From Nemertoderma westbladi (taxonomy: Eukaryota; Animalia; Xenacoelomorpha): a stretch of 64,000 bases of DNA. Below are positions 1-54,832 of this stretch, piece after piece (within the stretch, counting starts at the first letter, position 1; every line of letters begins with the position of its first letter). Below the pieces are notes generated by a model. That model was not told where the DNA came from and did no database searches. It worked only from the letters and a program-made list of their open reading frames with translations. A program made the position numbers and the translations under genes. The stretch lies in contig JAUCBJ010007250.1 of the NCBI GenBank assembly GCA_032718475.1, positions 585-64,584 of the forward strand, in the 5' to 3' direction.

Positions 1-614
1 AACATTTCCGCATCGATTGCGTCCAACACAAGCTTGGTTCCTTCACTATTAGGGCGAAGTCCAGACAGTCGTCTCCTCAACTCTTCGTCTCCTATGAATC
101 GCTGATAGTCTGACAGATATATGTCAATGGCGTCTCTAGTTCGCGGCTTCTCTGCTGCTGTTAATTCGCTTTCCACTTCGCTTTCCACCTCGCTTTCCAC
201 TTGAGAAGAAGTGGCGTCGGTTGATTCTTCATAGGTTGGCCGCTCATCATAAACCATATCCGCCATCTTCGCTCCGCGTTCGGGCGTCCGCTCCACAGTA
301 TCCGAACTACTGGAGCTATCGGGCCGCTGAGAACTAGGTTCTTGGCTAGGAGGTTGCTGCTGTTTTATAGCTTCTTCTTGATCCCGCTTGACTTGGGCCC
401 GAGTGCCTATGGCAGACCAACGGCGCTTCACTAACTTCGCAAAATGCGAAATCGCTTCTACCAACCTAGGTTCTGATACAACCACTGCAGGGGTTGCCCT
501 TCTTACAGTATGAGGGGTTTCAGACCTCGGTCTGGGATTCTCTACACTTTGATCTGAGAAACAGTCTGTTGTTTCTAGGAGACTATCTGACAGAGTTTGC
601 CTTGTGTCAGCCAT
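1..614 (-). CDS. gag: Gag N-terminus of element C (partial, frame continues to the window edge)
   Basis: Manual translation MADTRQTLSDSLLE...DAIDIYLSDYQRFIGDEELRRRL matches the element B ORFs at 38755 and 38196. Confidence 0.75.
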   Translation of the reverse strand, partial: MADTRQTLSDSLLETTDCFSDQSVENPRPRSETPHTVRRATPAVVVSEPRLVEAISHFAKLVKRRWSAIGTRAQVKRDQEEAIKQQQPPSQEPSSQRPDSSSSSDTVERTPERGAKMADMVYDERPTYEESTDATSSQVESEVESEVESELTAAEKPRTRDAIDIYLSDYQRFIGDEELRRRLSGLRPNSEGTKLVLDAIDAEM

Positions 615-1988
615 GTTTGTTTACACAGTTGAATGCCTACGGCTACAAATACAGTCAAAGTAAGTCTAGTAATTCAGTATCACCGTTAGCCTAATAATTA
701 ATTGCCGATACTGCTGCTCAGTGTAGCGTGATATATATATAATATATTAGAATACCGGTATGCTTATAATATATATATAAGTATGATTACAGACTAGATT
801 TGTCACAGAGTACCGGTATATAAATTTAGCACAAATATATATAAATATATAATAGGCCTATCGTGAATACCGGTATACAGCTGACACTTATAGTATATAT
901 AAGTATAATTATTACAGACTAGAATTAATTACAGAATACCGGTATGATTTCAGCTTAAATTTATAGAATAAATATAATAAGCCTATTGTAAATACCGGTA
1001 TGTCAATTATTTTAGAATAATTGAATTTCTGAATATTTTAGGGTTACTTGGTTACTTTAACTTACTCTGTTACCGTTATTTAAGCAGTAGTCCAACTGAT
1101 TTTGAGACCTAGTTGTTGTATGACAGGCCTACTATTTATAAATCGTTTGATTTGATTTATAATATTTATATACCCGTTTATATGGGTTTTTGTCAATATT
1201 TGAAATAAATGTTATTATTTCTGGGGGAGTCACTACACAGAAGCTGAACGCCTCTCAGTGAAGTGCTATTTATTTGACACTAAAACTGATAATTCTAATT
1301 TACCTAAGTTACTTAATTACTACAAATTACTTACGATACGGGTGAGATTAATTCTCTAGTTAAACACAACAAAATATTACGTACGAAATTTTTAGGGTAA
1401 TTTTACAGGAAGTCTACAAACCAGTCCAACAAAGGGTTAGATTTCTGGTTATTACAAAGGACAGGGTACTACGGTATTTAAATAATAAGTAGTAGTAAAT
1501 ATATTGTACTGTCCAGATAGGAAAATACCACCGCCTGACGACCTATAACCGTATCGCTATAGGTACTACGTTATGTATCACGGATTGTTCCTACCCAGAA
1601 GCTAATAGAGCTAACGAATGTGCCTATCAACCACTTTACAACACAAATATACTGCCTACACTAATTACTTCGGAAAGCACTGTACACTAAACCCTAAATT
1701 AGGTACAAGTACCGGTATAACAAATAATCAGTAGTTAAATATACTTGAACAGTTAAAAGAACCACGGCATCTGCTGGAGTGACCGAAGCACAAAGTCGTC
1801 AGTCTTTACCTACGCCAAGCAGCCCTGATGTAGTACCGGGGTTAGTTTAACTATAACGGTATGTATAACAAGCACAATTACTGTAGGAATAAACTTGGGG
1901 ACATGAATGTTGCGAATAATCGCATAAACTCTGAATAATAAATATTACGCTACCCGTACAGAATACTCAAACAAATACAAACCAAACG

Positions 1989-2500: not shown

Positions 2501-2766
2501 TATCTGAACAATCTGAGCAGGGTCACACGCCTTCTGCTCAATATTAGCCTACTAGAAAATAAAACCGACAGAAATAGGTAAAATCTCAATAAAAATTCAG
2601 GGCTGCAGTCCCTGATTAAGTACTAAGACCTACCAGTATACAATAATCAAATCGAATAATACTAAATGTACTTGTACAGCAGTACCGGTACCGGTTATGA
2701 CAGTTAGGCCTACTGACCTACAGAAGTACCGGTTCTTTGCAACCCTATTGCCTACTGCAATAAGAT

Positions 2767-2779
2767 TATAAACTGTTAC
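2767..2779 (-). promoter_or_regulatory. Non-tRNA primer-binding site of C (GTAACAGTTTATA), complementary to LTR 3531-3543
   Basis: + strand TATAAACTGTTAC (2767-2779) and GTAACAGTTTATA (3531-3543) are a perfect 13-bp inverted pair; the site abuts the LTR. Confidence 0.75.
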
Positions 2780-3928
2780 TGTTCGCGCTTTTGAAGACCT
2801 TTAGCAGTTTAACCCGCCAAAATTTATATGTCTTTTAGTTAATTAAAACACCTTTAGCATACGACAATATTTTATGCTAATACGCAAAACATTAGCCGAA
2901 GGCAGCCCATGCGCGATCATTCACCCGATGGATCTACACCCGGGAGGCTGAATTCGGATGCTTAAATTTTATTATTGCAGTGTAAGGTTGCAGTGTAAAC
3001 TTACTGTATTATTCGATAGATCGTTAATGATTAATTTCTGACAGATATTATTGGCTTTCGGGAAATATTAACAGTTCCTTTAGGACGTGGCGCTCTATCT
3101 ATTTAAACAGAACTAGGACTTATACTAAACGCAACGATACTGCTTATGATTAAAGTATAAAGCGTATTCTTTAGGAAATACTTTGTTACCAATCACAATC
3201 ATACACACTATTCTGCCGACCGTCAGTATATTTGATCACACATAAAGAGAGCAGTAATTGACTCATGTAGTGTCTGCTAAATAACATTAGATTCAATACA
3301 CACCACATTAATATAAATCGCAATTGTTATGTATAGCCGGTCTCTCTAACCTGTAGTGTATCAAGAAAATTGGGAATTTGGGTGATTTATCCGTATTATC
3401 CAAAGAGCAATATTTCCATCAACAAATAGGTACAATTAATAACTGACGGTAAATAACAGTACAAACAATATGATTAATGCAGTTAAATTAAGTGAGATAG
3501 TGAGTTCGTTCGATTAGTGAGATTAGTTTGGTAACAGTTTATACTTTCGATAATTTAAGCAGTTTTACTAGAGTTTCTAGAGCCGGTGTTTCTGGCTTAG
3601 ACAGCAATAACAACAAAGTATCAAGTAAAAACAGTAAGACTGAACACTCTCCTTATGATCGGCCGAAAAGCTACACGTCGACAGGAAAAATCGCTCTGAT
3701 TGGCTCAAGCCAAACAAAGAACCATGCGTCCAATGGCTGTTTCCATGTCAGCAACCAGCTGTTAGATGTCGTAATATGAATCATCACGGCTAAGCTGTGA
3801 AAGGTAGTTGGTGCATTGCAGGTTTTTTGCCTTACCATGTCCGCCAAAACACGTATATAGCAGAATGACTTTTATGTCCGTTAAAACACCTGTAACGGTA
3901 CCTTGCGGGCGAGGGGAATATATATACA
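2780..3928 (-). repeat. 5' LTR of element C
   Basis: Homologous to B LTR 4640-5743 (shared blocks such as AATATTAACAGTTCCTTTAGGACGTGGCGCT and AAAATCGCTCTGATTGGCT); ends ...GAACA on the - strand at 2780. Confidence 0.75.
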
Positions 3929-4634: not shown

Positions 4635-4639
4635 CATAT

Positions 4640-5743
4640 TGTTCGCGCTTTTAGACCTTTAGCAGTTTAACCTGCCAATTTTAGTTGTCTTCTTGTTTAT
4701 AAATCGACTTTAGCCTAGACCAATTATTTAATGTACTGAAGTTACATCCGCCGAAGCCAGTCTGTGCGCGATCATTCACCCACAGTTAAGGGAGACTGGA
4801 TTCGGGTGCTTTGAAGTTATTGCGGTGCAGACCTACTGTATTATTCGATTGATAGTTACTATATAATCTCTGACAAATATATTTACTTTCGGGGAAATAT
4901 TAACAGTTCCTTTAGGACGTGGCGCTTTAAGTATAAAAACAGAGTTATGACTTATACTAATCACAACTAGATGGCTACTGAGTTTCGTAAATAGCGCATT
5001 CTTTAGGAGATGCTTTATTATCTGTCACACTACTTCACACGACTTCACACTACTGCACACTGATCTGCCGACCGTCACTGAATTTGATCATATATAAGGA
5101 AGATCGCAACTGACACTTGTAGGGATTATGAAATAGCATTTAATTCACACAAAAACCACTATAATTTAAGTCGCAGTTGCTACCGGTAACCTGTTCCTCT
5201 CACCTTCAGTAATCAAGAAGATTGGGGGTTTTATGATTATTCATCGGTATTCTCCAAATATATCAGCAATATATATCCATATAACAACAATTAATAACAG
5301 AAGCAAATAATGCGGTGAACAATCAGTATGTGTTACGTAATGCATTGAGTTGTGTTATTCAGTATGTATGCAGGATAATAGATTTACGTTCTTGTAATCA
5401 AAGCCATCAGATGTTTAGGCCAAAGTCTGAAACTTCCAAAACAGAAGCACAGAAGAATTCTAAGCCGGTTATCTGGCTCAGAAAGGTAAACAAAGACCGT
5501 AATGCATTGCGCAGTTTTCCATAGGCCCCTGTTCAACATAAAATGAAAATCGCTCTGATTGGCTGAGCAGAACAAAGAGGTTCCACGTCTACAGGAAATC
5601 AGCTGACAGATTTCGTCATCTGAGCTCAAATCTTTTAGAGTATTATGCGCATTGCGGCAAAAATGACTTGTTATGTCCGCTAAAGCACCTACACTGTGCA
5701 TTGCGGGGAAAAATGACTTGTTATGTCCGCAAAAGCTTTTACA
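4640..5743 (-). repeat. 3' LTR of element B (1104 bp)
   Basis: Near-identical to 40645-41474; preceded on the - strand by the PPT. Confidence 0.95.
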
Positions 5744-5821
5744 CCGCTCCCAGAAAATGGGATTTAATTCTATAAAATATAAAAAATCACAGTTTCTAAA
5801 ATATAAAAATACTCTAAACAG

Positions 5822-6801: not shown

Positions 6802-8722
6802 TATAGAATTATATTCCCTAAATGCCGTGGATTTTCAAAATTTTATTTTATTCGAATTAACTTTGTAAAGATTGCTTTGAGTTCTCATTAGTATTGGTTC
6901 TATCTATTATGCATCTATCGGTCAAGTGGTTCAGTAGCTCAGTCGGTAGAGCGTTGGAAATTATATGTGTAGTAGGTATCGAGTTCGAATCCTAATAAGT
7001 GCGAATTATTTTTTGTGCAGAATTTCAACTCATTTAAATTAACCGCTACAAATTAATTGCATTTGTCTGTACCAATGAGACCGTAGTTATTTGATTGTAA
7101 CCAATGTCGTGCAAGTTATATATTAGCTGGACCAATAGCTATCTTTAAAACCTTGTTAGAATCTATAGAACAATCGAGAATTTTCTCGATTGATTGCGGC
7201 ACAAATTTAGTATATAAAGGTGCGATTTCGTTCATTAGTATACTTACACAAACTAATTCAATCCATCATTCACTTTCTGTCTTATTTCAGATTACATTGT
7301 TTATTGTATAATAGTTATTATATCTTTTGTAATAAAAGTCAGAAATACTAGTCACATCTCAGCCCTTTTCTATCTGTTTTACTATGGTTTCACTACGGTG
7401 AACAAACTCAGGGACAGGATGGCCGGCTAGAGATCGGGCCGCAGCAATGAACGGGAACATCACGGGAATGTAGACGAGAGACAACCCGCAATACCATCTT
7501 AGAGTTATTCGCCCATCGCCTGAAAGGTTAGACAGCGTTCGATCCTTGCTACCTAAGTGTAAGACCAAAAGATCAAAGGTAGACGTAGTGACGCGCTGTA
7601 AGCCCAAAATTACATCATAAGGACTGTACTGTCTTGATTCAGGAAAACCCACAGTAGACCTTCACATTCCTACGGGGGGAGGGAGAGAGAGCAGATACTA
7701 GTATGCAGATAGGACGTAGGCACACCGGTACAAGGCATACACATTGGTTAGGGTGCAGCAAACTGTACGCTTAACTCTTGCTAAGTACAGGTGTGTGTGC
7801 GACTATTTGCCGTACAACAGTGTCCATTACATCAGAACTTGTAGGCTAGGGGGTTGCTGTGTTTTCACCTGAATTGGGATTGTACCGTTCAGGCGGTAGG
7901 GCAGTTTACGCTAGGCGCAAATAAATTGAGGCTATCAGGGATATACTAACATCTACCGTGTCCCCGCCAACGCCCTAATAGGAAGTTACCCGGACTACCT
8001 GGGTGACTAAAATTCTAGATAGGAGCCAGGATAGCTATTAGTACCCGTACGCCTACAGTAGTAAACTAACACATCTCTTCTTTGTATCAGGGACCTGGTA
8101 CCTAAAATTGCCGAATTCTGGGCGTAGTATTAACCTTATGCCTGAATTTGAGTCCTGGAAATACGCAAGAGGGGAAGGAACCTTATCATTCGTGAGTATT
8201 GGACCTACAAGTTATAAAATTAGAATATTCGTAAAATGCACACCGTACCCAGTAATTATATATGTGAAGGAGCAAAACTGTTTTTTGACCGTTCAGAATT
8301 AACACACGCGCGTTAGAAATTATTTACACCTCGAAATATATAAAATTAACTTAGTCCGTACTGTGCTTTGCCCGCTAGTTAGACATCTCCAAATCTGCTC
8401 TATACCTAGCTAGCGTCCCTTTGCCCAACCATATAAATCACACCGCGGCAAAGTATACGAGCCTCTTAGTCCGTCAGTGAGTCAGCCTGATTTTAGGATT
8501 CGCTGCGCGGGATTTTGTTTTATCGAAGTTTGTCTGCTCGTAGACTGTTTTCTGCCTCACCGGTTATAAGAGATCGATACTGCAATATATTCGCTTACTT
8601 TGGGTTTACTGTTTTGGTGAGAAGGTCGGATTTATGATTTGATTTACAAACTTTACAGTAGGATATTGCAGGTATTGTTACCGTCTCTTCCGATAGTAGG
8701 AATAGGCGTATCTCTTCAATTA
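6802..8722 (+). repeat. 5' LTR of element A
   Basis: Matches 23829-25749 with about 3 substitutions seen by eye; begins TATAGAA, ends CAATTA; TATA-like motif at 7211, AATAAA at 7331. Confidence 0.95.
6928..7014 (+). ncRNA. tRNA-derived Pol III cassette in LTR A (degenerate; second copy 23955-24041)
   Basis: A-box TAGCTCAGTCGG (6935-6946), B-box GAGTTCGAATCC (6981-6992), T6 run (7009-7014). Acceptor and anticodon stems do not pair, so it is not a functional tRNA. Confidence 0.65.
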
Positions 8723-8733
8723 GTAGGAATGTG
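8723..8733 (+). promoter_or_regulatory. Non-tRNA primer-binding site of A (GTAGGAATGTG), complementary to LTR 7663-7673
   Basis: CACATTCCTAC at 7663-7673 is the exact reverse complement; no TGG start. Confidence 0.75.
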
Positions 8734-9530
8734 TTTTACTGAACTACGGTTCGGTAGGACTAAAGTTATTTGAAAATTTTGTATTTTGAGGTAAAAATTT
8801 GTATTTGATTAGCTAAGTGCTAATTTTTTGAAATAAAATTTGATTTGAACCGCGTGTGAAGTATTTTGGAATTGAATACCGGTGTTTAAAAGGGTTTAAA
8901 TACCATATTGTACCGGTACAAAATTTTCGTAAAGTAAAACCTAACTCTTTTGTTTTTTCAGGATTCAGAACTCATTTCTAGGCTGTAACGGGAGCAAGAC
9001 CGTGTTTAGCAAGTTTGGGAGATAGATAACTCAACAACTTTGGTTGGGAAAATCGCGTTTCGTCCGCAACGTTAAAAACGGAAAGGTTCACGTTCGGTTT
9101 GTATCTGGGAATCTGTTTTTCTGGAGAATTATTGGAGTGGGTGAGTTCGAAAAGTTGCATAAATAAGTTAGGCATTACCGTATTAGTTAAAATTATTGTG
9201 GGTTCCACTGTCTCAAGTATTTATGCATTCCATATGATTTCTTTGTTCATTGCTGAATTAGTCCGTATTATTGTATTTAATTTACCCTTCGATAACGCAT
9301 ATCGTTATCCGATTTATTTGTTATAAAATTGGCCGCTAGGCTAATTTTATTATATACTTATTCCGTGACATTTATTTGCTGTAAAATTGGCCGTTTAGGC
9401 TAATTTTATCCATCTGCTATAAGATCGGCCGGTAGGCTAATTTTATAAGACTGTAATTAGTACCGTTTAGATAAAAATACAGTAAACTCGATACTTTGAC
9501 ACTCACTTCACTTGACTTACAACTACTGAA

Positions 9531-12500
9531 ATGAGTGACAAACAAGACTATACGAAGAATACACAAACCGACTATGACTCATGTGACGCGGATAAGTCAG
9601 CAGCGGAAGAACCACAGGGGAAGACTCGCGAGCCTACCGAACCTACACCGTGTGCGTCACCAGTACATCCAACGGGAGTACCGGATGCCGTAGTACGAGG
9701 CGACGGCAGGACCGAGGACTTTCTAACTGTTCCGCAACCTAGATATAGGGAAACGGAAATGGTAAGTTCAGCAGGAAGCACAGAAAGTGTGGTTAGAAGC
9801 GTCGGTGGTTACATGGCGCATATTACCAGGAGTATTGGAGAAGGCCAACGCATATTAGACGGGTTGACCGCTCCGATGTCTCGATTCGAGTTCTACACCC
9901 TCCAGGTTAGAGTACAGAGTAAAGTATATAAGTCCGTAGATAATCTAGTTGGCCTACAAGATCTAGCTAGACAGAGACAGGACATGGATACTCAACTTAG
10001 AATCCTCGAGAAACTAATGATCACTAGAGAGAAACTGATTCAGTTTAAGTCGACGATTAGACAGATACAACAGGAACAAGCGGACCAGTTGCTAGGTGAG
10101 TCAGTTTCGGACGAATTATTACAGCCCGAGGAAGAACAGGAACTGTACCGACTGGATGGACAATTGAAACACCTGACGGATCACTTGCGCATGTGCGGCG
10201 AAGACGTCGGGGATTGGGAAACCGTGCCGGAGGCTACGAGGGAAACTTCACTCGCACAAATCGAACTGGCACCGGGAACACTAAATCAATCACTGGTGAG
10301 TATTCGTAGCGAAATCTGCGAAGGAAGTATGGTCACGTCAGAAGTCGCTCGACAACAGCAAGAATTCTGCCGACAACGACAAGAAATGGAAGAACAAGCT
10401 CAACTTCTAGTGATGCAAGCAGCAGTAGAGGAAGAGAAGCTACGCGTTGCGAATATAGTAAGAATATCTCATCTACAGGAACAAGCTGAATTAGAAGCAG
10501 CTGAAGTAGAAAGGTTAGAGTTAGACATTGCCCGACAAGCGGCAGCGGCAGCGGCCGAGTTAGAGCGACAAAACGCGGCGGCCGAGTTAGAGCGACAAAA
10601 CGCAGCGGCCGAACTGGAGCGACAAACGGCAGCGGCAGCGGCGGAATTAAAACGAGAAAGGTTAGTCTCAGAAGCACGGGCCGAAATGAGAACACGGCAA
10701 ATAAAAGCTCAATCTGCTATACGACAAGCAGAATTTGAGGCGCAACAACGACAAACGGAACAACGAGAGAAGACAGCTAAACTTCATTTCGAACTTGAGA
10801 AGAAGGCGAGAGAATTAGCGAACGCTGAGGAAGATCTGGATCAAAGGGCCCGCGATCGATCGATGAGATCTCGTGACGGACATGATTTGGACCAGTTAGA
10901 GGTAAGACATCGCCAAATTCAGGAACGGAAGAAGGAAGGAAGCGTAGGAGCACCCGGACGGGAACGACAATTAGTAAAGGACGTGTGTCAACGATTCCCA
11001 CAGGTAACTCATATGTTTGCACCGGTTACGACTAAGGAACCTGTTTCGATTGCGGGTAGTAGTAACATTTCTCCTATCCATGGTGCGACGGAACACAGGT
11101 TTGTTATTCCGGACGAGTTTACACCGCCAAGAGCAACGTCGTCGCCTATTCCGAAAGTCAAGGTAAGTAACCCACCGATTACGGATCGTAGTAGTTTATT
11201 GACCGGACCTGCACTACTGACGACAAAACAGGTGAGTCCACCGTCGACACCTAAACCCGTTACACACTACGCTTACCCAATGACGTTTCGACCAACAAGG
11301 CCTTTGGATTCAAATGCTGTCACTCGACCACCGGTTCAGTTTACATCGCAATCTACGACTTCGAGGAAGACTTGTGAGCCTACCGAACAACGGAGAACAG
11401 TGGATACGCGACCGGTTCAGTTTACATCGCAATCTACGACTTCGAGGAAGACTTGTGAGCCTACCGAACAACGGAGAACAGTGGATACGCGACCGGTTCA
11501 GTTTACATCGCAATCTACGACTTCGAGGAAGACTTGTGAGCCTACCGAACAACGGAGAACAGTGGATACGCGACCGGTTCAGTTTACATCGCAATCTACG
11601 ACTTCGAGGAAGACTTGTGAGCCTACCGAACAACGGAGAACAGTGGATACGCGACCGGTTCAGTTTACATCGCAATCTACGACTTCGAGGAAGACTTGTG
11701 AGCCTACCGAACAACGGAGAACAGTGGATACGCGACCGGTTCAGTTTACATCGCAATCTACGACTTCGAGGAAGACTTGTGAGCCTACCGAACAACGGAG
11801 AACAGTGGATACGCGACCGGTTCAGTTTACATCGCAATCTACGACTTCGAGGAAGACTTGTGAGCCTACCGAACAACGAAAGCGAGACGATGTTCCGAAA
11901 CGAACCGTTAGAATTAGTACGACGCAACGGACGCGAGCACGTCGACCACCATATCCAGATGATAGTAGTACTTCGAGCGAATCGGATTACCCGAAACGCG
12001 AGGTATTTAGAACAGGGGCGGCCGATGAATACAAACGCGAGCGTTCAGACAACTCCTTTGCAGACAATCCTCCACAGAATACACCAACACAGAAGGCGTT
12101 ACAACCAACGGACGCAATTAGTACACAACAGTTCGCCGACATCCTGCGACCAGTTGTCAATAAGTTGGCTCAAATCGAGGAACGTCTGGAGGAAGGTTAC
12201 ACCGACAGTTCGAGAAACTCCGAATTCGAACCCAATAAACACCCGAAGGAACCACAAAGACCGGTACCTTCAAACCCCACATCGTATCAAAGAAAAACGC
12301 CAAGAAGGGAGAACAACAACCCGGTTGCCAACCAAGGACGCGAAACTTTGAACGTTGCCGAGGAGATAGCGAAATTCGCAGCCAGACAGGGATTGCCGGT
12401 ACAACAACCACCGAAGTTTTCCGGTAGCTCAAAACACTGGCATACCTTCGTAGACTATATCGAATCCCAGATCGCCGTGTGCGCCTTTACATCACGGGAG

Positions 12501-15500
12501 AAGTTCAATTACCTGCTCCAAATGTTGTCAGGAGAACCTAAACGTTTGGCGGAGACCTTCGTTGGTGTACCGGACGCTTTCGAACTAGCGTACGATCGTT
12601 TGACTTCGATATACGGAGGTACAGTGAGTATGGCCAGGTCAGTAATAGAGGAACTCTGTAAGGGAGGGGCTATCACTAAACCCGTCGACTTACTAAAACT
12701 GGCTGACGAGATTAAGAACGCTATCACTACCTTAAGATCAATTGGACAACTTGATTACGGGAATACCCCTACAGTTCTATTAAAGATAATAGGACGACTC
12801 CACCATCGACTTCGTCGGGAGTGGAGGAAGGTCGAATACCAGCGAGAGGAGCGAGGAGGATTCCTAAAATTAGAAGATGTGTACCTTTTAATATCCAGGG
12901 AGGCGGTAGTTGAAACTCGATCTAACTATACCGACCAGCACATCGTGGCAGAAGGGATCACACTGCCATCCTCCAACCGACAAAAACCCCAGACAACATC
13001 CACAAAGACGGCCACTTACGCCACACCGACGGAATCACGACAATTCTCAGACGGTAATAGAGTATCTGCGCCCATTGGAACGAAACAGACGAGACAGCAA
13101 CTCAGCGCCGACTTCAACGGCTGCCAATACTGCGAACATTTAGGTAAGCGGTATATTGGTCACAAGTTACGAGGTTGTCGACAATTTCGCGAGTTGAACT
13201 CAGAAGAACGACGGCTGCAGATACGGCCACTGGACTCTTGTTGGCGGTGTACGCGACACGGACACGTCCGTAAGGATTGCCCAAATACCGACACTTGTCC
13301 ATCCTGTGGACGCAACCACGACGGTCTGCTCCACACAGACAGCCACACGCCGACGAAACGCTTCGCCAGGGAACACCCGGAAGCAGCAGCGAGATGTGAT
13401 GCGGCCTACCGAAAACGAGAATCGAAAACGACTCCAACATTCGTGACCCATATAGAGGATTGCTTTTCAGAACAATCCGGATCGTCGGACGAAGAATCAG
13501 ACGACGACGAATATTCTAATGGAGACGAACAACCGTCAATCGCGCTCCTGACCACTGACCAACTGAAGGGATTCAGTGTAATCCCGATTAAAGTTACTGG
13601 CACAAAGGGGAGCAAAAGAATCTACGCGATTCTAGACTCAGCCTCATCTCACAGTTACGTGGATGAAAAGATAGCTGACGTCGTAACGGATCTCAGACAA
13701 GGTAAACACGTCAGTTATACAGTAAGTAGTATGCACGGCCAGCGTGCAATACCAGTGACACGAGTTAAGTTGGACTTAGACTCTCTTCTTCCAAAATCGC
13801 AACACAGCGAGAGGGAGAGGTCTTTGTTGCCCTTTAGAGATCTAACCTTTGCGGCCACGAAGGACTTTAGTAACCTACTAGGTCCAGTGCCGGAACAATC
13901 TCTGGAGGACCGTAAGTATTTCAGACACCTTGGTGTACCCGAATGTCCTGTCAATTATAGATCGGTAGCAATGCTGATCGGGACGGACCAATTCAACCTA
14001 CATCAGGTGTGGGAAACCAGACCATCGGCAGTTGTAGCGGGAAACGCATACGCCTGCAGAACGCCGATAGGGTGGTATACTCGAGCGCCTGTGCGCACAC
14101 TAGACGTAAGTGACGAGGAAGACGACGTACAGAGTACATGTAGTTTATTGACTACAAACTCAATTCATTCCTTTTCACACGACGTGAACCATACTACGCT
14201 ACAGTCGACAAAACATGACAGACGTGTAACTAGTATGATAAGTCACAAGGAGCAGCTAACCCACAAGGTGAGTTTAGAACTTGGGGAGAAGACGAATCAG
14301 CTAGAGATTCCATCGACGACAGATGATAGGCTTGCGAGTCTACCTACCCCAACAACCTCAACAGTGCCCGTCGATATCGACGATGACGCGTTGAAAATTC
14401 ATCAGTTGGAACAAGCCGCCTTGGACAAAGAATTAACGGAGAAGACTATCAGGTGGTTAGAACAAGATACAGCTGAACCTGGTAGCTACGAACCTTGTAT
14501 GTCGGAACAGGAGAAACAATCTCTGAAGATCATGGAGGATACTATCCGACAGACGGAGGACGGACATTACGAGGTGGGTATGTTATGGCGTAGCCAAAGT
14601 CCTAAACTTATAAACAACTACCCACTGGCTTTAAGACGTCTACACTCAATACGGCAACGTCTATTAAAGGACGAGAAAGCCCATCTGCAGTACAACACTC
14701 AGATGGAGACGTATTTGACGAAGGGATACGCTATCCGAATGACTAACCCGGAGCAAGTGACCGACCAGACATACTACCTGCCACATCACTATGTGAGACA
14801 TCCCGACAAACCAGACAAAGTACGCGTAGTCAATGACTGTGCGGCTCTGTTTGAGGGAATGTCCCTCAATAGTGAGTTGATGGATGGACCGAACATGAAT
14901 AATTATCTTATGGGGGTGATTATGCGCTTCCGTCAGCGTCAAGTAGCCTTTACTTGCGACGTTGAAGCGATGTTTCACCAAGTGAAAGCGTTAGAGCGAG
15001 ACAGAGACAGTTTGCGGTTTCTCTGGTATCCGGAAGGGGACTTAAGTCTACCACCAGCGACTTACCAAATGCAAGTTCGCGTTTTCGGTGCCAGAGACAG
15101 CCCAAATTGTACGATGTACGCCTTGAAGCAAGCCGCTAGAGATCAGAAACATTTGTATGACCCAGAGATAATTAGAATTGTAGAACGTGACTTTTACGTT
15201 GATGACGGTTTACAAAGTTGCGACACAGTAGAACGTGCTACAACAGTAGCACATCAATTACGGGACTGCTTGGCGGGCGGAGGTTTTAACCTCACCAAAT
15301 TCGCCTCAAACAGTGCCGAATTAGTTGACTCATTCGGAACTACTGAGCGTGGAGGTGGTGACATAGACCTAGAGTTCGAACCACTACCGACGACTAAGGT
15401 GTTGGGGCTCTTTTGGGACCCAAACACAGACAACTTTCGAGTGAAGGTGAGACTGGACAGTCAAGGAAACACACTGACCAAGAGATCATGCTTGTCAAAG

Positions 15501-18500
15501 TTGAGCCGATTGTTCGACCCGTTAGGATTCATCAGTCCAGTGATACTGCAAGCCCGCATTTATATGCGCAGTATATGGAAGGATGGACTAACGTGGGACG
15601 AGCCGATCTCATCAGACCAAGTGGACTTATGGAAGACCTGGGAGGCGGAATTGTCTTCGCTAGAGGATTATTTCATACCCAGGGTTTACTTTCCATTACA
15701 GAGTACATTTCCTGACAACTTAGAACTACACTGTTTTTCTGACGCCAGTGACAACGGTTTTGGTGTGGCAGCGTATTTGCGCAGACAAGTAGAATCAGAC
15801 GAGTTCGATGTTTCGCTCATTACTTCCAAGGCTAAGACCATGCCTACTAAGTATATGACGACACCACGAGCCGAGCTACAAGCCGCGACCCTGTCAACCA
15901 CCATCGTGAACCTCATACAGACAGAACTACAGTCGAGTTTACAGATATTTTATTGGACTGACGCGACGTTGGTTTTATTTTACATAAACAACGACACACT
16001 CGAATTCAAGACATTCGTAGCTAACCGTCGCGCAGAGATTCTAGACCGTTCGATAAAAGAGGATTGGCGACATTGTCCCGGACCACAAAACCCAGCTGAT
16101 ATTGCGTCGCGAGGAATGATGCCTGAGGAATTCTGTAAACCGGAGAACAAAGAGTTTTGGCAACACGGACCCCAGTTCTTGCAGAAATCGACACAAGATT
16201 GGCCTCCGCTATACGACAACAAGTCCAACACCATTCCTAAGGACGCCGAAATCAAGAAACCAAAAAAGGGGAAGACAAAGAAAAGGACAACGGCGGCGAA
16301 ACTAAAGAAAAAACCGAAGGCGAAATGGAAGGATATAACTTCAAAGGTCAAGAGAGGAAGACTTGCGAGCCTTTCTACACCAGACATATCGCCAGACGGT
16401 CGACCAGACATATCGCCAGACGGTCAACCAGACACTTTACTAGACAGTCAACCAGACATTTTGCCAGACATATCACAAAATGTTCCACCAGACGCTAGTA
16501 ACACACTGACAAACAGTAAAGCCGCAGTTTCTCTATTGGAGCGGCCTTCTATTGACAAACAACTAGATACGTTACCAGACGTATCGCCAGACACATTACT
16601 AGACAGTCGACTAGACACTAGTAATGTATTGACTAACGATAAAGCCGCAGTTTCCCTATTGGAGCGGCCTTGTATTGACAAACTACCAATTTTGACACAC
16701 TTGAGCAACCATAAGCACGGTGAAACCTCATGTATTACAGATGTGGGTAGTACCTACGCTAATGTAAATACAGGTGTTACTCTGCGCTCAAGAGACATAC
16801 CGAACTTGCAACCTATAGTGAGACCTGGGATTAATGTCGGCAGGAAAATAAGTTTACCGAAACCTGCTGACCCCATAGAGTTCAAACCACCATTAACGAT
16901 CGACTTACAAAGTACCGACAATCAAGGTAAGAAGACGAAGAAGGACAAATTACTTGTAGACCCGGACGGATCAACAGTCAACAAGGGAATACTTACCGGC
17001 GGACCCGTGGGCCCTTCTAGTAATTCAAAACCTTCCAAAATCTCCATTGACTTACCTGATGACGTCACAAATACTTACGTCGACCGAATTGTAAACTTAA
17101 CAGACTCTTGGTCGAACGCTTGCCGAAAATTAGCGTGGATTGTACGTTTCGTACAATACGTTAAAGGCAAACGTGACTTTACACGTCGACTTACATTGGC
17201 TGAGATTGACAGGTGTGAGATTAAATTAATTCGCCATTACCAACTGCGATATTTCGCGCGCGAATTCACATCCATAAATCAAGGTCAACCAATCAAGTCG
17301 TCACCGATACTGAGTTGGAGTCCGATTATTTATAATGGCTTAATTTGTCATAAATCTCGGCTTCAAAACATTGACTTTAACACAAACTTTAGGTACCCAA
17401 TAATAATACCGCAACACCACGAACTACAACGTGCAATGATACTGGACGCACATTTACATCTGAAACACGCTGGAAGACACCACTGTCTTTCCTACTTACG
17501 TACTAGATTTGTATTAATTAGACCCAGTAAAGCATTGAGTTCAGTGACACGTACGTGTATTATTTGTAAAAAGGTACATTCTAGAATAGGTACCCAAGAA
17601 ATGAGTGAACTATCACAAGCACGACTTCAAGCATTCAGACCACCTTTTACAGAGACTGGAATTGATTGCTTTGGTCCCATACATACGAAACGTGGACGTA
17701 TACTAGTAAAACGCTGGGGACTGATTTTCACATGTATGTCCAGTAGGGCAGTTCACATTGAACGTGTGATGGATCTTTCCACCAACGCGTTTATACTAGC
17801 ACTGCGGCGATTTATCGCTAGACGCGGACTAGTAAAATGCTTGTACTCAGACCAAGGGACAAACTTTGTTGGTGCTCGGAATGAGATTGCTAGAGCCTTT
17901 AAGAGATTAGATCATGATCAAATCTCGAACGAACTGCAACCTCACAAGATTGTTTGGAAGTTTAATCCTCCAGATAGTCCTTGGAGAGGCGGAGTCTGGG
18001 AGAGATTGATTAGATCTATCAAAACGGCCATGGCAAAGGTCATTCCAGTAAACCACATATTAACAGACGACCAACTGACAACATTGTTTGTTGAAATCGA
18101 GGCAATACTAAATACTAGACCAATAGTATTAGTACCCGATGACAAACAATCTCAGTTCGCTTTAACACCAGCACACCTGCTTATGCAGGCACCGACCACA
18201 TTGACGCCGATTTCCATTCCAATGGAAAGTGATAGTTACGGTAGAAAAGCGTGGAAAATCACGCAACTACTGGCTAACAAATTCTGGGAAATATGGCAAA
18301 ACCATTATTTGCCCTCTATTTCTGCCAGAACAACATGGTACAATAACACCCGCGCATTAAAGCCGGGAGATCACGTGCTGTTGGCAGAAGTGAATCTAAA
18401 AAGACGCTTCTGGATAACAGGTGTCATTTTAGCCACACATCCATCTATGGATGGAGTGACAAGAACTGTGACGGTACGAACAATTGACGGTCGTACAGTA

Positions 18501-18587
18501 GACAGACCAACTCAACGTCTCGTACTTCTTGAAGAGACTCGTAACGAGTCTGGAGACTACAAATCTCCACCTAATACTAGTAAATAA
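9531..18587 (+). CDS. gag-pol: BEL/Pao Gag-Pol polyprotein (3018 aa)
   Basis: Coiled-coil N-terminus; PPKFSG...W Gag core; triple Cys/His cluster (CWRCTRHGHVRKDC, CPSCGRNHDGLLH); protease AILDSAS; RT YYLPHH and FYVDDG; RNase H HCFSDAS, PRAEL, YWTDA; integrase GIDCFGP, YSDQGTNF, WERLI. Confidence 0.97.
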   Translation: MSDKQDYTKNTQTDYDSCDADKSAAEEPQGKTREPTEPTPCASPVHPTGVPDAVVRGDGRTEDFLTVPQPRYRETEMVSSAGSTESVVRSVGGYMAHITRSIGEGQRILDGLTAPMSRFEFYTLQVRVQSKVYKSVDNLVGLQDLARQRQDMDTQLRILEKLMITREKLIQFKSTIRQIQQEQADQLLGESVSDELLQPEEEQELYRLDGQLKHLTDHLRMCGEDVGDWETVPEATRETSLAQIELAPGTLNQSLVSIRSEICEGSMVTSEVARQQQEFCRQRQEMEEQAQLLVMQAAVEEEKLRVANIVRISHLQEQAELEAAEVERLELDIARQAAAAAAELERQNAAAELERQNAAAELERQTAAAAAELKRERLVSEARAEMRTRQIKAQSAIRQAEFEAQQRQTEQREKTAKLHFELEKKARELANAEEDLDQRARDRSMRSRDGHDLDQLEVRHRQIQERKKEGSVGAPGRERQLVKDVCQRFPQVTHMFAPVTTKEPVSIAGSSNISPIHGATEHRFVIPDEFTPPRATSSPIPKVKVSNPPITDRSSLLTGPALLTTKQVSPPSTPKPVTHYAYPMTFRPTRPLDSNAVTRPPVQFTSQSTTSRKTCEPTEQRRTVDTRPVQFTSQSTTSRKTCEPTEQRRTVDTRPVQFTSQSTTSRKTCEPTEQRRTVDTRPVQFTSQSTTSRKTCEPTEQRRTVDTRPVQFTSQSTTSRKTCEPTEQRRTVDTRPVQFTSQSTTSRKTCEPTEQRRTVDTRPVQFTSQSTTSRKTCEPTEQRKRDDVPKRTVRISTTQRTRARRPPYPDDSSTSSESDYPKREVFRTGAADEYKRERSDNSFADNPPQNTPTQKALQPTDAISTQQFADILRPVVNKLAQIEERLEEGYTDSSRNSEFEPNKHPKEPQRPVPSNPTSYQRKTPRRENNNPVANQGRETLNVAEEIAKFAARQGLPVQQPPKFSGSSKHWHTFVDYIESQIAVCAFTSREKFNYLLQMLSGEPKRLAETFVGVPDAFELAYDRLTSIYGGTVSMARSVIEELCKGGAITKPVDLLKLADEIKNAITTLRSIGQLDYGNTPTVLLKIIGRLHHRLRREWRKVEYQREERGGFLKLEDVYLLISREAVVETRSNYTDQHIVAEGITLPSSNRQKPQTTSTKTATYATPTESRQFSDGNRVSAPIGTKQTRQQLSADFNGCQYCEHLGKRYIGHKLRGCRQFRELNSEERRLQIRPLDSCWRCTRHGHVRKDCPNTDTCPSCGRNHDGLLHTDSHTPTKRFAREHPEAAARCDAAYRKRESKTTPTFVTHIEDCFSEQSGSSDEESDDDEYSNGDEQPSIALLTTDQLKGFSVIPIKVTGTKGSKRIYAILDSASSHSYVDEKIADVVTDLRQGKHVSYTVSSMHGQRAIPVTRVKLDLDSLLPKSQHSERERSLLPFRDLTFAATKDFSNLLGPVPEQSLEDRKYFRHLGVPECPVNYRSVAMLIGTDQFNLHQVWETRPSAVVAGNAYACRTPIGWYTRAPVRTLDVSDEEDDVQSTCSLLTTNSIHSFSHDVNHTTLQSTKHDRRVTSMISHKEQLTHKVSLELGEKTNQLEIPSTTDDRLASLPTPTTSTVPVDIDDDALKIHQLEQAALDKELTEKTIRWLEQDTAEPGSYEPCMSEQEKQSLKIMEDTIRQTEDGHYEVGMLWRSQSPKLINNYPLALRRLHSIRQRLLKDEKAHLQYNTQMETYLTKGYAIRMTNPEQVTDQTYYLPHHYVRHPDKPDKVRVVNDCAALFEGMSLNSELMDGPNMNNYLMGVIMRFRQRQVAFTCDVEAMFHQVKALERDRDSLRFLWYPEGDLSLPPATYQMQVRVFGARDSPNCTMYALKQAARDQKHLYDPEIIRIVERDFYVDDGLQSCDTVERATTVAHQLRDCLAGGGFNLTKFASNSAELVDSFGTTERGGGDIDLEFEPLPTTKVLGLFWDPNTDNFRVKVRLDSQGNTLTKRSCLSKLSRLFDPLGFISPVILQARIYMRSIWKDGLTWDEPISSDQVDLWKTWEAELSSLEDYFIPRVYFPLQSTFPDNLELHCFSDASDNGFGVAAYLRRQVESDEFDVSLITSKAKTMPTKYMTTPRAELQAATLSTTIVNLIQTELQSSLQIFYWTDATLVLFYINNDTLEFKTFVANRRAEILDRSIKEDWRHCPGPQNPADIASRGMMPEEFCKPENKEFWQHGPQFLQKSTQDWPPLYDNKSNTIPKDAEIKKPKKGKTKKRTTAAKLKKKPKAKWKDITSKVKRGRLASLSTPDISPDGRPDISPDGQPDTLLDSQPDILPDISQNVPPDASNTLTNSKAAVSLLERPSIDKQLDTLPDVSPDTLLDSRLDTSNVLTNDKAAVSLLERPCIDKLPILTHLSNHKHGETSCITDVGSTYANVNTGVTLRSRDIPNLQPIVRPGINVGRKISLPKPADPIEFKPPLTIDLQSTDNQGKKTKKDKLLVDPDGSTVNKGILTGGPVGPSSNSKPSKISIDLPDDVTNTYVDRIVNLTDSWSNACRKLAWIVRFVQYVKGKRDFTRRLTLAEIDRCEIKLIRHYQLRYFAREFTSINQGQPIKSSPILSWSPIIYNGLICHKSRLQNIDFNTNFRYPIIIPQHHELQRAMILDAHLHLKHAGRHHCLSYLRTRFVLIRPSKALSSVTRTCIICKKVHSRIGTQEMSELSQARLQAFRPPFTETGIDCFGPIHTKRGRILVKRWGLIFTCMSSRAVHIERVMDLSTNAFILALRRFIARRGLVKCLYSDQGTNFVGARNEIARAFKRLDHDQISNELQPHKIVWKFNPPDSPWRGGVWERLIRSIKTAMAKVIPVNHILTDDQLTTLFVEIEAILNTRPIVLVPDDKQSQFALTPAHLLMQAPTTLTPISIPMESDSYGRKAWKITQLLANKFWEIWQNHYLPSISARTTWYNNTRALKPGDHVLLAEVNLKRRFWITGVILATHPSMDGVTRTVTVRTIDGRTVDRPTQRLVLLEETRNESGDYKSPPNTSK
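11330..11878 (+). repeat. 81-bp coding tandem repeat (~6.8 identical copies, 27 aa unit) in gag of A
   Basis: Unit RPVQFTSQSTTSRKTCEPTEQRRTVDT; GGAAGACTTGTGAGCC recurs at 11365, 11446 ... 11851. Confidence 0.97.
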
Positions 18588-19248: not shown

Positions 19249-22200
19249 ATGGAGAAAGGGACACAAGGAGAGCCAAGATGGGGATATGATATCCAAGAGG
19301 AGGCAGCAGCGCCATTCGAAAGATTTGGAGCCAAGGATTACACTATATTTGGTATAAAAGAATTATCGGAAAGTACAGCGAAACTCGCGAGAACTAAATA
19401 TGACTCGAATGTATTAAAGAGAAGGCAAAACGCATTAAACGAAAGAATCGAAAGTTTGCGCCAAACCTTCAACGAACTTTACCCGTACGATGCTTTGTGT
19501 GACACGGGAGACATTAGCGAAGACCCCGATACTGAAATTAGTCGTTTGTATCATACCATGCAATACCTAAAGGCGCATGAACCTATGCCTGCGGTACGCG
19601 ATGAATTCGATGGAATGCATCTTTACAGACGAACTCGAGGGGACGATAGAGAAACCAAGGAAGCATTTTCAGTTTATAAACTTTATTATCAATGCGGTTC
19701 TTGTATGCGCGAACAACGAAATGCGATTCCGATGCGTTTGAATAAGGAAAATCCCGAACCGATATTGGCGAGGTGTTCGAATCATCAACAACTACGCTAC
19801 CAGGAAGGAGGGTATCCTTTATCGAATCCATATCATTCATTTGCTATGACCGGACCAAAGGCGGGAGAAACTGTCATTTACCCACCTAAGGTTGTTGAAC
19901 CCGATGTATTTGAACTTACGCTGGACGAGGCGAATCAGTCAACCCGCGAAAAGAAAGAAGCTCTTAGCCTATACAGAGCCTACAAGGCTTTCGAGAAAGG
20001 TGAGATGGAAGAATGGGGTGGAAGACTCGCGAGCCTACCTTGCCATTGGACGTCACACGATCAAACTTCAGCTAAGGAGATGACACCGGAAGTTTTCGAG
20101 AGCATAAACTTTGCTCAAAACGTTATTCAGAGATTACAGATTGCATCCCCGGAGAGGCCAAGAGAAATGCAACCGTATAGTACTTCAACTACGAAACCAT
20201 TGAGTACGACACTCAATTTCCCTATTAGTATACCAGTCCGACAGGATACGACGTACGAAATACCCATCGTGGATCATCCAGAAATCATTTCAAACTTGGA
20301 GTTTCTTCCTGCAGTTGTTTTCAGCGATATGAGTAAGATATATGATTTGCGTAGACATATTACTCAAAAGGTCGTGAACAACGTTCCACCTCATATTCAA
20401 GATTTTAAGGAACTGGATAGAGCTGGTGCCGACATAGCTCCGAGTAATCTGAAAGGATATCTAACCAAGACGATTCGTTTATGGATTGGAATCGGAACCT
20501 TCGAGTCGGATACGGATATTGCCGCAGATTGGCGAGGTAAGGTTATTCGTTTCGATGAGGATAAGGATATAGAGAAGATTTGGCAACCTTCGGAAGAATT
20601 GTTGGATGAATGGACTAGGACGTTTAGATCGTTTCAGGAAAACGGTTATATGTTTTACGATAACGAGGGCGGCAGTCATCAGCAGAGTTTGACTTCTAAG
20701 ACTATACAGATTAGAGCGGCGGACGGAGTCCTGCACGTTTTCAGTAGACAGAGGAGCGACAAACGAATGCCGATACCTCCAGCGAATACAAAGCGACACC
20801 ATCTTATCACCGATATAGTAAAGAAGATGGACCAAGCTTGTAATATTGACGCTAGAATGCTACCGAAGATGGTAAGAAACATGATTTTAGATAAAACTGT
20901 TGTAAAGGTTGGATCAGGAGTAAGGGAGGATTTAATTAGCGACTTCGTTGGCATGACGGACAGCGATGACCGACTACCGACACCATACGTCGACACTCGA
21001 CCTCTTATTCTGTGGTCTATAGAACAGGGATATTTTCGTGAGTATAATACTCAGAAGACTGGAACTGGATACATTTCCTACCTGTTATTCAATTGGGATT
21101 ATAAGGAAGGTAAAAGAAACAAGTATATTGAAACTTATGGAGAAGGTGATACTCCAGATATGAGTGAGTTTGAATCACAGCTTAAATGGAGAGGATGCGT
21201 GTATTGGGCTATTACGTCACCTCCAAGAGCGGTCTTACAATATTATTTAGCGATAGAGTCGTCAGTGAATGTTTGCCTAATCGCCGACATCGTGTCTCGG
21301 ACTCTCAAAAGACATCCACTTTGTCTCGGAGAAGATCATACGTTCTACATGGAAGGGAGAATTCGTACCGACGTGTTTAGACGATTCCTTGAACCCTTCT
21401 ACAACTCCGACGCTCAGTGCAATGCCTTTACTCGAGCAGGATTTAGTATATTTCGAGACGTGTATCTTCGCTGTGCGGGATCTCTTATCGAAAGACCATC
21501 TATGTTTACACTGTTACCCTATGAAGGAGAACGTATCGTGGAGATTACGGATGAATCACGGCAGACGCGCGCGCCTATCGGTCACCTTGGTGATGAATTC
21601 GAAGTAACTACTACGATCGCCGACGATCCTTTAGAGGAACTTCTTGAGATAGAAAGGAACCTCCCGAAGAAATCTCAGACGGAGATTCGACAACTTGAAG
21701 CAACAGATGCTATAGTTTGCCTACAACCTTCAGAAACCTACCAACCCATAGACCCAGATGATTACGATTATAGTATGGGAGGAAGCGCTCGACCGATTGG
21801 AGATCTTATATACGAACGAGTGTGGTACCCTGCTAATACGATGTGTAGTAAATGTGGCGTCGCTGGACATCATATGGCAAAGTGCAGTGGAAAGCACATT
21901 ACTACGACTCAGCTAATCTGTGGATGGTGTGGGGATCAAGGGTCTCATACCTTTTATACTTGCTGGAGATTTATGGCTCAATGTACTTACTGCAATATAA
22001 AGGGACATCGAGCATCTGAATGCCAACTGAGAGACATACCTTATGAACATGAATCTGTAAAACTCGTGAGGAAGTTATTTGATGAGTGGGAAGATTTGGC
22101 CGACGAACATGTATCGGCACAGAGAAGACGGTTTCCGATGAGAGCGCATCTCGGATTTTGGGCGGTAAATCCCCAGACGATGATGTCGGAAGGATACATC

Positions 22201-22974
22201 TCCGCTATGCCCCAATATGACGAACTTATCGAGGTTGTTGATATTTTGCCCCACGACAGCGGATTCCGAGTGGTGCGTGAGTATCTGTTACAGATTCACC
22301 CAGATAACAAAAACACGTGGAATTTTCAGAAAGTCGTAAATCGTATCACGTATGGTGAATTTGATCGTTTCCGAACCGAAAAGCGGAATAAAGGAGCTTG
22401 GTTAACCGTCGCATGGGCGTACCGAGCCGCGTTTTACCATAAACGTATACGAGCGAGCGTATTCGAGGAAGAAGAGGTCCTAGAGGCGACGAATATATCA
22501 GCCACTCCGGTTGCGCCGTCTGCACGTCACCCTCGGGAGGACGGGCAGGGTAGGATCATACGGGTCCAGAAAGTGGGCCAACAATTGAAGAAAATTATTA
22601 ATGTGGAAGAACGCAAGGGAGTTGAGCCGACTATTCGAGTTACTCGGGATACGGTATCACTTCCAAGAGAACCGGTAGGAGGATCGGGACATACACCAGC
22701 TGATCAACAGGGGGCGCAAGCTACTCTTGGGTCTGCGTCGTCCACTCCTCGCGCGTTCCCAGACGTTCTACCAACTGTAGCGACAACTGATCGGTCACGA
22801 GGAATTGGTCGAGGTTTTGGGATGCCAAATAGACGAATTTGCGAGGAAATAGTCGCACCGTCTCTCAACGTCCCAAGTAAACCAGTGACTCGCCCCAATA
22901 GTCCCATATCGCGAGCAAAGTCACCTGTGCGCAGTTTTCGAGGACGCGGCAGGGCTCGATCTACTAAGCGATAA
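19249..22974 (+). CDS. Element A ORF2: DEDDy-like 3'-5' exonuclease fold plus three CCHC zinc knuckles (first ATG 19249)
   Basis: IQIRAADG, LPKMVRNMILDKTVVKVGSGVREDL, YVDTRPL, YYLAIES resemble WRN/EXD2-type exonuclease motifs in order. Knuckles CSKCGVAGHHMAKC, CGWCGDQGSHTFYTC, CTYCNIKGHRASEC. The ORF is certain; the domain call is by eye. Confidence 0.75.
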   Translation: MEKGTQGEPRWGYDIQEEAAAPFERFGAKDYTIFGIKELSESTAKLARTKYDSNVLKRRQNALNERIESLRQTFNELYPYDALCDTGDISEDPDTEISRLYHTMQYLKAHEPMPAVRDEFDGMHLYRRTRGDDRETKEAFSVYKLYYQCGSCMREQRNAIPMRLNKENPEPILARCSNHQQLRYQEGGYPLSNPYHSFAMTGPKAGETVIYPPKVVEPDVFELTLDEANQSTREKKEALSLYRAYKAFEKGEMEEWGGRLASLPCHWTSHDQTSAKEMTPEVFESINFAQNVIQRLQIASPERPREMQPYSTSTTKPLSTTLNFPISIPVRQDTTYEIPIVDHPEIISNLEFLPAVVFSDMSKIYDLRRHITQKVVNNVPPHIQDFKELDRAGADIAPSNLKGYLTKTIRLWIGIGTFESDTDIAADWRGKVIRFDEDKDIEKIWQPSEELLDEWTRTFRSFQENGYMFYDNEGGSHQQSLTSKTIQIRAADGVLHVFSRQRSDKRMPIPPANTKRHHLITDIVKKMDQACNIDARMLPKMVRNMILDKTVVKVGSGVREDLISDFVGMTDSDDRLPTPYVDTRPLILWSIEQGYFREYNTQKTGTGYISYLLFNWDYKEGKRNKYIETYGEGDTPDMSEFESQLKWRGCVYWAITSPPRAVLQYYLAIESSVNVCLIADIVSRTLKRHPLCLGEDHTFYMEGRIRTDVFRRFLEPFYNSDAQCNAFTRAGFSIFRDVYLRCAGSLIERPSMFTLLPYEGERIVEITDESRQTRAPIGHLGDEFEVTTTIADDPLEELLEIERNLPKKSQTEIRQLEATDAIVCLQPSETYQPIDPDDYDYSMGGSARPIGDLIYERVWYPANTMCSKCGVAGHHMAKCSGKHITTTQLICGWCGDQGSHTFYTCWRFMAQCTYCNIKGHRASECQLRDIPYEHESVKLVRKLFDEWEDLADEHVSAQRRRFPMRAHLGFWAVNPQTMMSEGYISAMPQYDELIEVVDILPHDSGFRVVREYLLQIHPDNKNTWNFQKVVNRITYGEFDRFRTEKRNKGAWLTVAWAYRAAFYHKRIRASVFEEEEVLEATNISATPVAPSARHPREDGQGRIIRVQKVGQQLKKIINVEERKGVEPTIRVTRDTVSLPREPVGGSGHTPADQQGAQATLGSASSTPRAFPDVLPTVATTDRSRGIGRGFGMPNRRICEEIVAPSLNVPSKPVTRPNSPISRAKSPVRSFRGRGRARSTKR

Positions 22975-40633: not shown

Positions 40634-40644
40634 AAATCTATTAT
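40634..40644 (-). promoter_or_regulatory. Non-tRNA primer-binding site of B (ATAATAGATTT), complementary to LTR 41380-41390
   Basis: + strand AAATCTATTAT (40634-40644) versus ATAATAGATTT (41380-41390; also 5375-5385 in the 3' LTR). Confidence 0.75.
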
Positions 40645-53300: not shown

Positions 53301-53655
53301 ATCGAGATTTGATTATCCCATTATAGTCATTTATATAAGGTATTTTTCCAGTGTTAATTACATTGCAATATAATTAAGGATTAAAGCAATATACACTTTT
53401 ATTGACTCTTACACGACACCCCTCGTTAAGAGCGGAGCTCATAATTTAAAATGCTATATGGAAATAAAGAACTTCCAAATAACATCCAAAAAATATATTT
53501 CTTATAACTAATATGGCCGCCTACTACGCCCGATTACTAAAAATATAATTATTCTGTAGGTTTAAACGAAATAATCAAATAATTATACCAAATACATTAT
53601 ATTAAGTAATTTGCATGTGTGGAACAAACATATTATAATTAATTATGTATGAATG

Positions 53656-54800: not shown

Positions 54801-54832
54801 ACAGTAGAGCCTTATCTTTTAACTGAAAATCC

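Follow-up and report, generated by a model that had tools for sequence, protein, structure and literature searches.

Three BEL/Pao LTR elements, henceforth referred to as B, C and D, carry beside the 5' LTR a primer binding site (PBS) that is exactly complementary to a site within their own LTR, referred to as the partner. The complementarity spans 11–13 nt and begins with the base immediately following the LTR in every BEL/Pao element of the window with a visible PBS (3/3), and a tRNA-type (TGG) PBS was not found in B, C or D. By analogy with Tf1, these elements probably begin minus-strand DNA synthesis from their own RNA instead of from a tRNA. Self-priming had been proposed in an initial annotation of this DNA and was upheld as the best explanation. 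The window is the whole stretch of Nemertoderma westbladi DNA that was analysed (64,000 nucleotides).

Element anatomy and primer binding sites

The window is rich in repeats and contains nested LTR elements, four of which (B, C, D and E) were resolved by self-BLAST, open reading frames and Pfam; their features are collected in Table 1. Element B runs past the left end of the window, which places its 3' LTR and target duplication outside, and its visible parts are limited to the 5' LTR, 2.2 kb of leader and the beginning of gag. Element C spans 41474 to 4640 on the minus strand and is flanked on both sides by the target duplication CATAT. Its LTRs end in TG..CA and are identical at 821 of 830 positions outside a 274-nt gap in U3. 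Element D (6802–25749, plus strand) is inserted within the second open reading frame of C and is a young, intact-looking example, with LTRs identical at 1918 of 1921 positions. No BLASTN match was found between the D LTR and the LTRs of B or C.

Elements C and D carry the BEL/Pao domains DUF1759, Peptidase_A17 and DUF5641 in combination with the RT-RH-IN order, and B was counted as BEL/Pao by its homology to C in the LTR, leader and gag start. The purine tract GGAGCGG is common to C and D, both of which have paired LTRs and target duplications. Among the 120 listed of 491 matches, the closest RT-RNase H relatives of C and D are 37–45% identical, and those that are named come from marine invertebrates and fish. 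Element E, of Ty3/gypsy type, served as control.

Table 1 Features of elements B, C, D and E and their positions in the window.
Feature	Position	Strand	Remarks
B gag frame start	3..620	-	Homologous to C 38231–38758 region
B hairpin directly behind PBS	2740..2768	-	12 bp; z -3.98; 0/200 shuffles as stable
B PBS	2767..2779	-	Core 11 nt 2769–2779, sense GTAACAGTTTA; adjoins LTR; no TGG
B 5' LTR	2780..3888	-	1109 nt; TG..CA
B partner (putative self-primer 3' end)	3531..3543	-	751 nt from LTR 3' end
CCAAT-box motif common to B and C	3691..3704 (B)	-	Upstream of partner by 163 nt (B) and 178 nt (C)
C 3' LTR	4640..5743	-	1104 nt; partner copy at 5375–5385
C LTR site aligned to B partner	5419..5429	-	44 nt upstream of C partner; pairs with neither PBS
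C purine tract	5744..5751	-	
C gag-pol	30634..38758	-	Several frames; DUF1759, Peptidase_A17, Integrase_H2C2 (BEL/Pao)
C weak hairpin behind PBS	40603..40627	-	Homologous to that of B; z -0.18, no better than shuffles
C PBS	40634..40644	-	Sense ATAATAGATTT; adjoins LTR; no TGG
C 5' LTR	40645..41474	-	830 nt; lacks 274 nt of U3 relative to 3' LTR
C partner, 5' LTR	41380..41390	-	735 nt from LTR 3' end
D 5' LTR	6802..8722	+	1921 nt; TA..TA ends; target duplication GAGAC
D partner	7663..7673	+	1049 nt from LTR 3' end; 3' LTR copy 24690–24700
D PBS	8723..8733	+	GTAGGAATGTG; adjoins LTR; exact 11-nt complement of partner
D hairpin directly behind PBS	8734..8759	+	11 bp; z -3.37; 1/200 shuffles as stable
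D gag-pol	9531..18587	+	One frame, 3018 aa; Peptidase_A17, DUF5641, DUF1759, Integrase_H2C2 (BEL/Pao)
D second ORF	19249..22974	+	1241 aa; CCHC knuckles; weak 3'-5' exonuclease lead
D 3' LTR	23829..25749	+	
Control element E, Ty3/gypsy-type	53132..58349	-	282-nt LTRs; duplication ATGCG; TGG-type PBS

An extra open reading frame lies between pol and the 3' LTR, as the second ORF of D and as minus-strand pieces in C (25747–26550 and 5822–6670). The D protein and the first C piece are 27% identical over 303 columns (E 5e-24), and the second C piece is linked to it by a knuckle motif only. The exonuclease lead of the D protein is weak (atlas 0.92; PF01612 on 50% of the matched cluster), Pfam returned weak knuckles but no envelope-type match, a PDB search gave no match, and the single-sequence fold was unusable (pLDDT 30).

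Several other repeats were observed in the window. The B leader contains a 287-nt tandem duplication (1936–2503) that C lacks, the gag of D an 81-nt tandem repeat (11249–11977) and the gag of C an alanine-rich repeat of 9–18 nt (37062–37600). Between B and C, an open frame at 3997–4650 resembles by eye a LINE endonuclease fragment, with no Pfam match at E 0.001. A three-copy tandem repeat of about 450 nt (42108–43422), foldback/MITE-like inverted arrays of a 15-nt repeat about 1 kb apart (47483–48603) and a LINE-type element (Exo_endo_phos, RVT_1; 50503–53159) adjoining element E complete the list.

The B core (2769–2779) exactly complements 3531–3541, and the match extends to 13 nt when 2767–2779 is paired with 3531–3543. 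The C PBS finds its exact 11-nt complement in both LTRs. Apart from the PBS and the LTR partner copies, the 64 kb contain no complement of any of the 11-mers. When the LTRs were shuffled, matches of this kind arose with P = 5e-5 for B, 0.0012–0.0016 for C and 3.5e-4 for D (20,000 Markov shuffles each for B and C; the run used a B LTR 9 nt too long, without consequence), and the value for C rose to 0.015 once six offsets were allowed. As background, 0.44% of sampled window positions have a match of at least 11 nt within the preceding 1100 nt. The TGG-type PBS of control E has a longest self-complement of 5 nt (P 0.54). Four of the 11 PBS columns are invariant across B, C and D (P about 0.007), and the PBS sequence is not wholly free. 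With this qualification on the PBS sequence, the annotated view that pairing and not sequence is conserved was supported.

When the RNA was begun at the partner, the predicted minimum-energy folds of B, C and D all contained the PBS duplex, with predicted pair probabilities of 0.79–0.97 in B, 0.93–1.0 for 10 of 11 pairs in D and 0.08–0.2 in C. Additional 5' bases altered these predictions: the B duplex dropped to 0.0 with 60 or 100 extra bases, the D duplex stood at 0.8 with 60 and 0.0 with 420, and the C duplex at 0.4 with 60. Stable hairpins directly behind the PBS were found in B and D (Table 1), and none behind the PBS of control E. The weakness of the C stem may be private to this copy, since contigs of two public runs differ within it. 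Duplexes of the Tf1 side type did not beat shuffles in any of nine tests (P 0.08–0.87), a weak test for short helices.

The CCAAT box shared by B and C is presumably a promoter element, and the B partner itself reads TATAAA. In the D LTR, three CCAAT motifs, TATAAA at 412 and AATAAA at 530 all lie far upstream of the partner at 862. These promoter-like motifs suggest that the transcription start may lie away from the partner. The U3 of D also holds a degenerate tRNA-like segment (6910–7004) that carries a run of T and motifs resembling A and B boxes; ARAGORN reported it only at a relaxed threshold, and Rfam gave no match.

Covariation or a moved partner in B and C

The annotated homology of the B and C LTRs was borne out (70% by BLASTN), and the distances of the partners from the LTR 3' ends were confirmed. 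Between the two PBSs, 4 of 11 positions differ when no gap is allowed; with a gap, the difference amounts to two transitions and a 1-nt indel. Each difference is mirrored in the element's own partner, as had been claimed: duplexes with the own partner are exact (-13.9 kcal/mol for B and -8.0 kcal/mol for C), and crossed duplexes are weak (-3.8 and -2.3 kcal/mol). The PBSs are orthologous, since both are flanked by an LTR end and a hairpin that the two elements have in common, and they can be aligned.

The partners had been described as occupying equivalent positions, and they do lie in the same zone of the LTR, but five of six global alignment schemes placed the B partner 44 nt upstream of that of C and the sixth placed it 19 nt upstream. 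Forcing the two partners together lowered the alignment score in all six schemes. A pair-HMM with five parameter sets assigned 0.004–0.105 to the partner-on-partner register versus 0.65–0.95 to the upstream register. The distance from the partner to the conserved upstream anchor is 46 nt in B versus 84 nt in C, that to the downstream anchor 87 nt versus 76 nt, and the stretch between the anchors aligns poorly. Ungapped 25-nt flanks gave no decision, with 21 of 50 positions identical partner-on-partner versus 19 of 50 in the -44 register. A local tandem duplication in C that would reconcile both registers was unsupported (P 0.45).

Strict compensatory covariation was thus unsupported, because the alignment does not establish orthologous partner sites; what stands of the annotated claim is that the PBSs are orthologous and the changes mirrored, within a single evolutionary comparison. 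In one scenario the partners are orthologous and have changed, flanked by two larger indels; in the other the partner shifted its place and the PBS was rewritten accordingly. The data fit the two scenarios equally, and both fit a PBS copied from its primer. We infer that a moved partner with a rewritten PBS would be hard to reach through point mutation and selection alone. The difference between B and C is best read as a change carried from the partner into the PBS.

The pair is not a covariation test, because n = 2 and mirrored changes are to be expected in whichever RNA duplex is under selection. Mirroring is evidence for the importance of pairing and not for a role as primer, and it does not single out priming or re-templating. 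Copying of the primer into the PBS, which the annotation invoked, belongs to the standard LTR model (PMC7175516) and would follow from self-priming. The annotation had also ranked the B/C pair as the strongest support for self-priming; element D, the negative gypsy control and the 11 of 19 relatives described below weigh more. On its own the pair is of modest value, which lies in its being a natural test of PBS re-templating.

The family is large, with 6988 and 2289 matching contigs in two public runs. None of the 40 listed of 218 variant rows from four runs (40300–41600) fell within the C PBS or partner, nor did any of 21 variant rows (at least 30%) from two runs (40612–41402), in which both sites lie at thinly covered edges; contigs of these runs cannot phase sites 735 nt apart.

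Metagenomic relatives and a model of priming

An RT alignment was used to search metagenome contigs for relatives, and the best 80 of 540 confirmed stretches were taken (28 of 64 collection parts). A direct repeat was present in 37 of the 80; 34 were inspected, 21 had a usable LTR end, and 19 were retained after two same-family duplicates were dropped. These 19 do not represent 19 independent hosts, because accession prefixes recur among many of them and some group as sisters in the tree. A DNA pattern of the U5 end had no matches in metagenome and viral contigs, and viral contigs yielded no loci for the D RT, the D second ORF or the RT alignment.

A self-complementary PBS was observed in 11 of the 19 relatives, in two of them contiguously (11 nt, P 0.010; 10 nt, P 0.037), in nine only across a predicted splice junction. 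In these nine (L002, L011, L014, L025, L035, L049, L061, L071 and L076), a 10–15-nt complement of the PBS is formed across the junction of an LTR intron of 71–164 nt (GTAAG..YAG; each P at most 0.010), and the match begins 0–4 nt after the LTR. All nine donors read GTAAG, though the scan demanded only GT[AG]. With offsets of 0–1, which were applied first, one family (L049/L077) matched among 21 loci; offsets of 0–5 were chosen afterwards, and the same rule was applied to the shuffles. The other 8 relatives had no PBS complement (P 0.455 or more). Three of these 8 have TGG; in five of the 8 the LTR end coincides with the contig end and is uncertain. The LTRs of L003 and L014 end in TG..TA, and the TA..TA ends of D are accompanied by a clean 5-bp duplication.

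Of 14 elements (the 11 relatives together with B, C and D), 13 have a putative primer whose last two bases are A-C or A-U, and in 11 of these the next base is C. The loop between the paired sites measures 735–1049 nt in B, C and D versus 86–278 nt in the 11 relatives. A quick tree with 47 rows joined C to D (SH-aLRT 99) on long branches apart from the 45 sampled relatives, a placement obtained without named reference elements and in which the long branches may attract; relatives of the spliced type are scattered over the rest of the tree. A splice-junction primer was also considered for B, C and D and rejected, the contiguous match being equal or longer and the split matches lacking GTAAG donors.

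The preferred model takes as its observed base the element anatomy, the BEL/Pao identity, the missing TGG site, the exact complementarity, the B and D hairpins and the 11 of 19 relatives, and every step beyond the complementarity is modelled on Tf1. The 5' LTR copy of the partner would form the genomic RNA's 5' end, or lie close to it, and fold back onto the PBS. RT/RNase H would then cut just 3' of the partner, after A-C or A-U and usually before C, and the freed 3'-OH of the partner RNA would prime strong-stop DNA. Plus-strand synthesis would copy the primer into the new PBS, so that the PBS follows the partner, and copying of this kind could transmit single-base changes, an indel of 1 nt or relocation of the partner to an adjacent site. 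The LTR DNA of the spliced relatives lacks the complement, which arises only in the RNA. Persistence of the intron in both LTRs would fit a junction used as primer with the unspliced 3' copy as template; the self-primer of B, C and D would then be a version without an intron. Several observations weigh against the model: the promoter-like motifs away from the partner, the loss of the predicted B and D duplexes when the 5' end is lengthened, the Tf1-type side duplexes looked for and not found, the longer loop of B, C and D, and the 8 relatives with no complement.

A broader and rather speculative version, to which we give less credence than to self-priming of B, C and D, makes self-priming the rule in much of BEL/Pao, with a primer ancestrally spliced from an intron of the 5' LTR. 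B, C and D would have become intron-less, their primer site wandering as the PBS is rewritten; the B/C difference would be a 44-nt jump of the primer and not point covariation; and the exonuclease-like ORF may trim the primer.

Among the alternatives, the least improbable, though still unlikely, is that the duplex is selected but does not prime, the PBS pairing with the 3' LTR partner or with the leader so that the genome is circularised, packaged or switched. Long-range 5'–3' pairings occur in yeast Ty elements, mirrored changes would suit this duplex as they would any other under selection, and, judged by the promoter-like motifs, the partner could lie within U3 (the TATAAA of B) or deep in R-U5 (D). 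Yet in B, C and D the match begins exactly where the 3' end of a primer must sit, at the first base after the LTR, which leaves no room for another primer site; the shared A-C/A-U end and the missing TGG site likewise argue for priming.

A primer acting in trans is less probable again. It would be a host RNA (a tRNA half or small RNA) or a separate LTR-derived RNA (from a solo LTR or short transcript), and the LTR match would represent the primer gene or a by-product. The invariant PBS columns are in keeping with such a primer, as are the abundance of the family in the host (thousands of contigs) and the tRNA-like stretch of D at its relaxed threshold. The three PBSs differ, however, and each perfectly matches only its own LTR; furthermore, Rfam gave no match in 2600–9000 and no tRNA gene was detected in the window at the default threshold. 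A last reading, very improbable, takes the match for chance or for the inverted, functionless remnant of a single template switch. The background frequency of 11-nt matches and the P of 0.015 for C taken alone would leave room for it, but it is largely refuted by recurrence, in D with its unalignable LTR and in 11 of 19 relatives, nine of them across canonical splice sites.

Relation to known self-priming elements

If self-priming of this kind holds, BEL/Pao being the third LTR superfamily and an animal-only one, tRNA-independent priming would be common in animals, and the many BEL/Pao elements without a recognisable PBS would be explained. Annotation tools that require a tRNA PBS would be affected. 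The relation of such elements to host control of the kind that acts through tRNA fragments would be touched as well. The result would also bear on whether tRNA priming is ancestral or late, a question discussed in PMC3601003, where BEL/Pao is described as confined to animals.

No report of BEL/Pao self-priming was found by full-text searches of the literature or in passages of PMC3601003, PMC5443660, PMC6934838, PMC3118150 and PMC8220671; subscription papers, repeat databases and the supplements of PMC3118150 and PMC6317226 may hold one. In the main text of the BEL/Pao survey PMC3118150, the words "primer", "PBS" and "tRNA" have no occurrences. With the named superfamilies of this group (Semotivirus: BEL, Pao, Tas, Suzu, Sinbad, Dan and Flow), the elements described here share Peptidase_A17, DUF1759 and DUF5641.

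Self-priming has been described for Tf1 and Tf2 of Schizosaccharomyces pombe, Tj1, Tosmo1-3, Tcry1 and the Tf1/sushi group (PMC4600332, PMC5341516, PMC7175516). In Tf1, the RNA's initial 11 bases anneal to the PBS and RNase H cleaves between bases 11 and 12 (PMC7175516, PMC4600332, bioRxiv 10.1101/2022.12.06.519325), and the plus-strand cDNA generally ends in PBS sequence (PMC7175516). Elements B, C and D resemble this group in lacking a tRNA PBS and in having an 11-nt PBS beside the 5' LTR that is complementary to a site in the LTR (here 11–13 nt). They differ in that the C and D proteins are of BEL/Pao type and not of Ty3/gypsy chromovirus type, with no chromodomain match at E 0.001. Because their Pol is BEL/Pao, B, C and D are not members of the Tf1/sushi group, and the likeness is, as far as tested, one in the way of working. 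Their LTRs are also 1.1–1.9 kb long with a loop of 735–1049 nt, and nine of the BEL/Pao relatives, unlike the Tf1/sushi elements, would build the PBS complement by splicing. The primer of Tf1 is the 5' end of the RNA, whereas the partner here is a putative 5' end. Tf1 RNA further adopts a three-duplex "pretzel" in which both PBS-adjacent segments pair with the LTR downstream of the primer (bioRxiv 10.1101/2022.12.06.519325); these side duplexes were not found here, and a local hairpin stands behind the PBS instead in B and D.

Self-priming has also been predicted from sequence for the Tcn1 clade of moss chromoviruses and the TAR lineage of plant Ty1/copia, including Houba and Osr-1 (PMC6317226). 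Those are plant elements of other superfamilies, and the passages on self-priming in that study do not name BEL/Pao. The TAR lineage lies outside Ty3/gypsy, so that self-priming arose or persisted in more than one superfamily.
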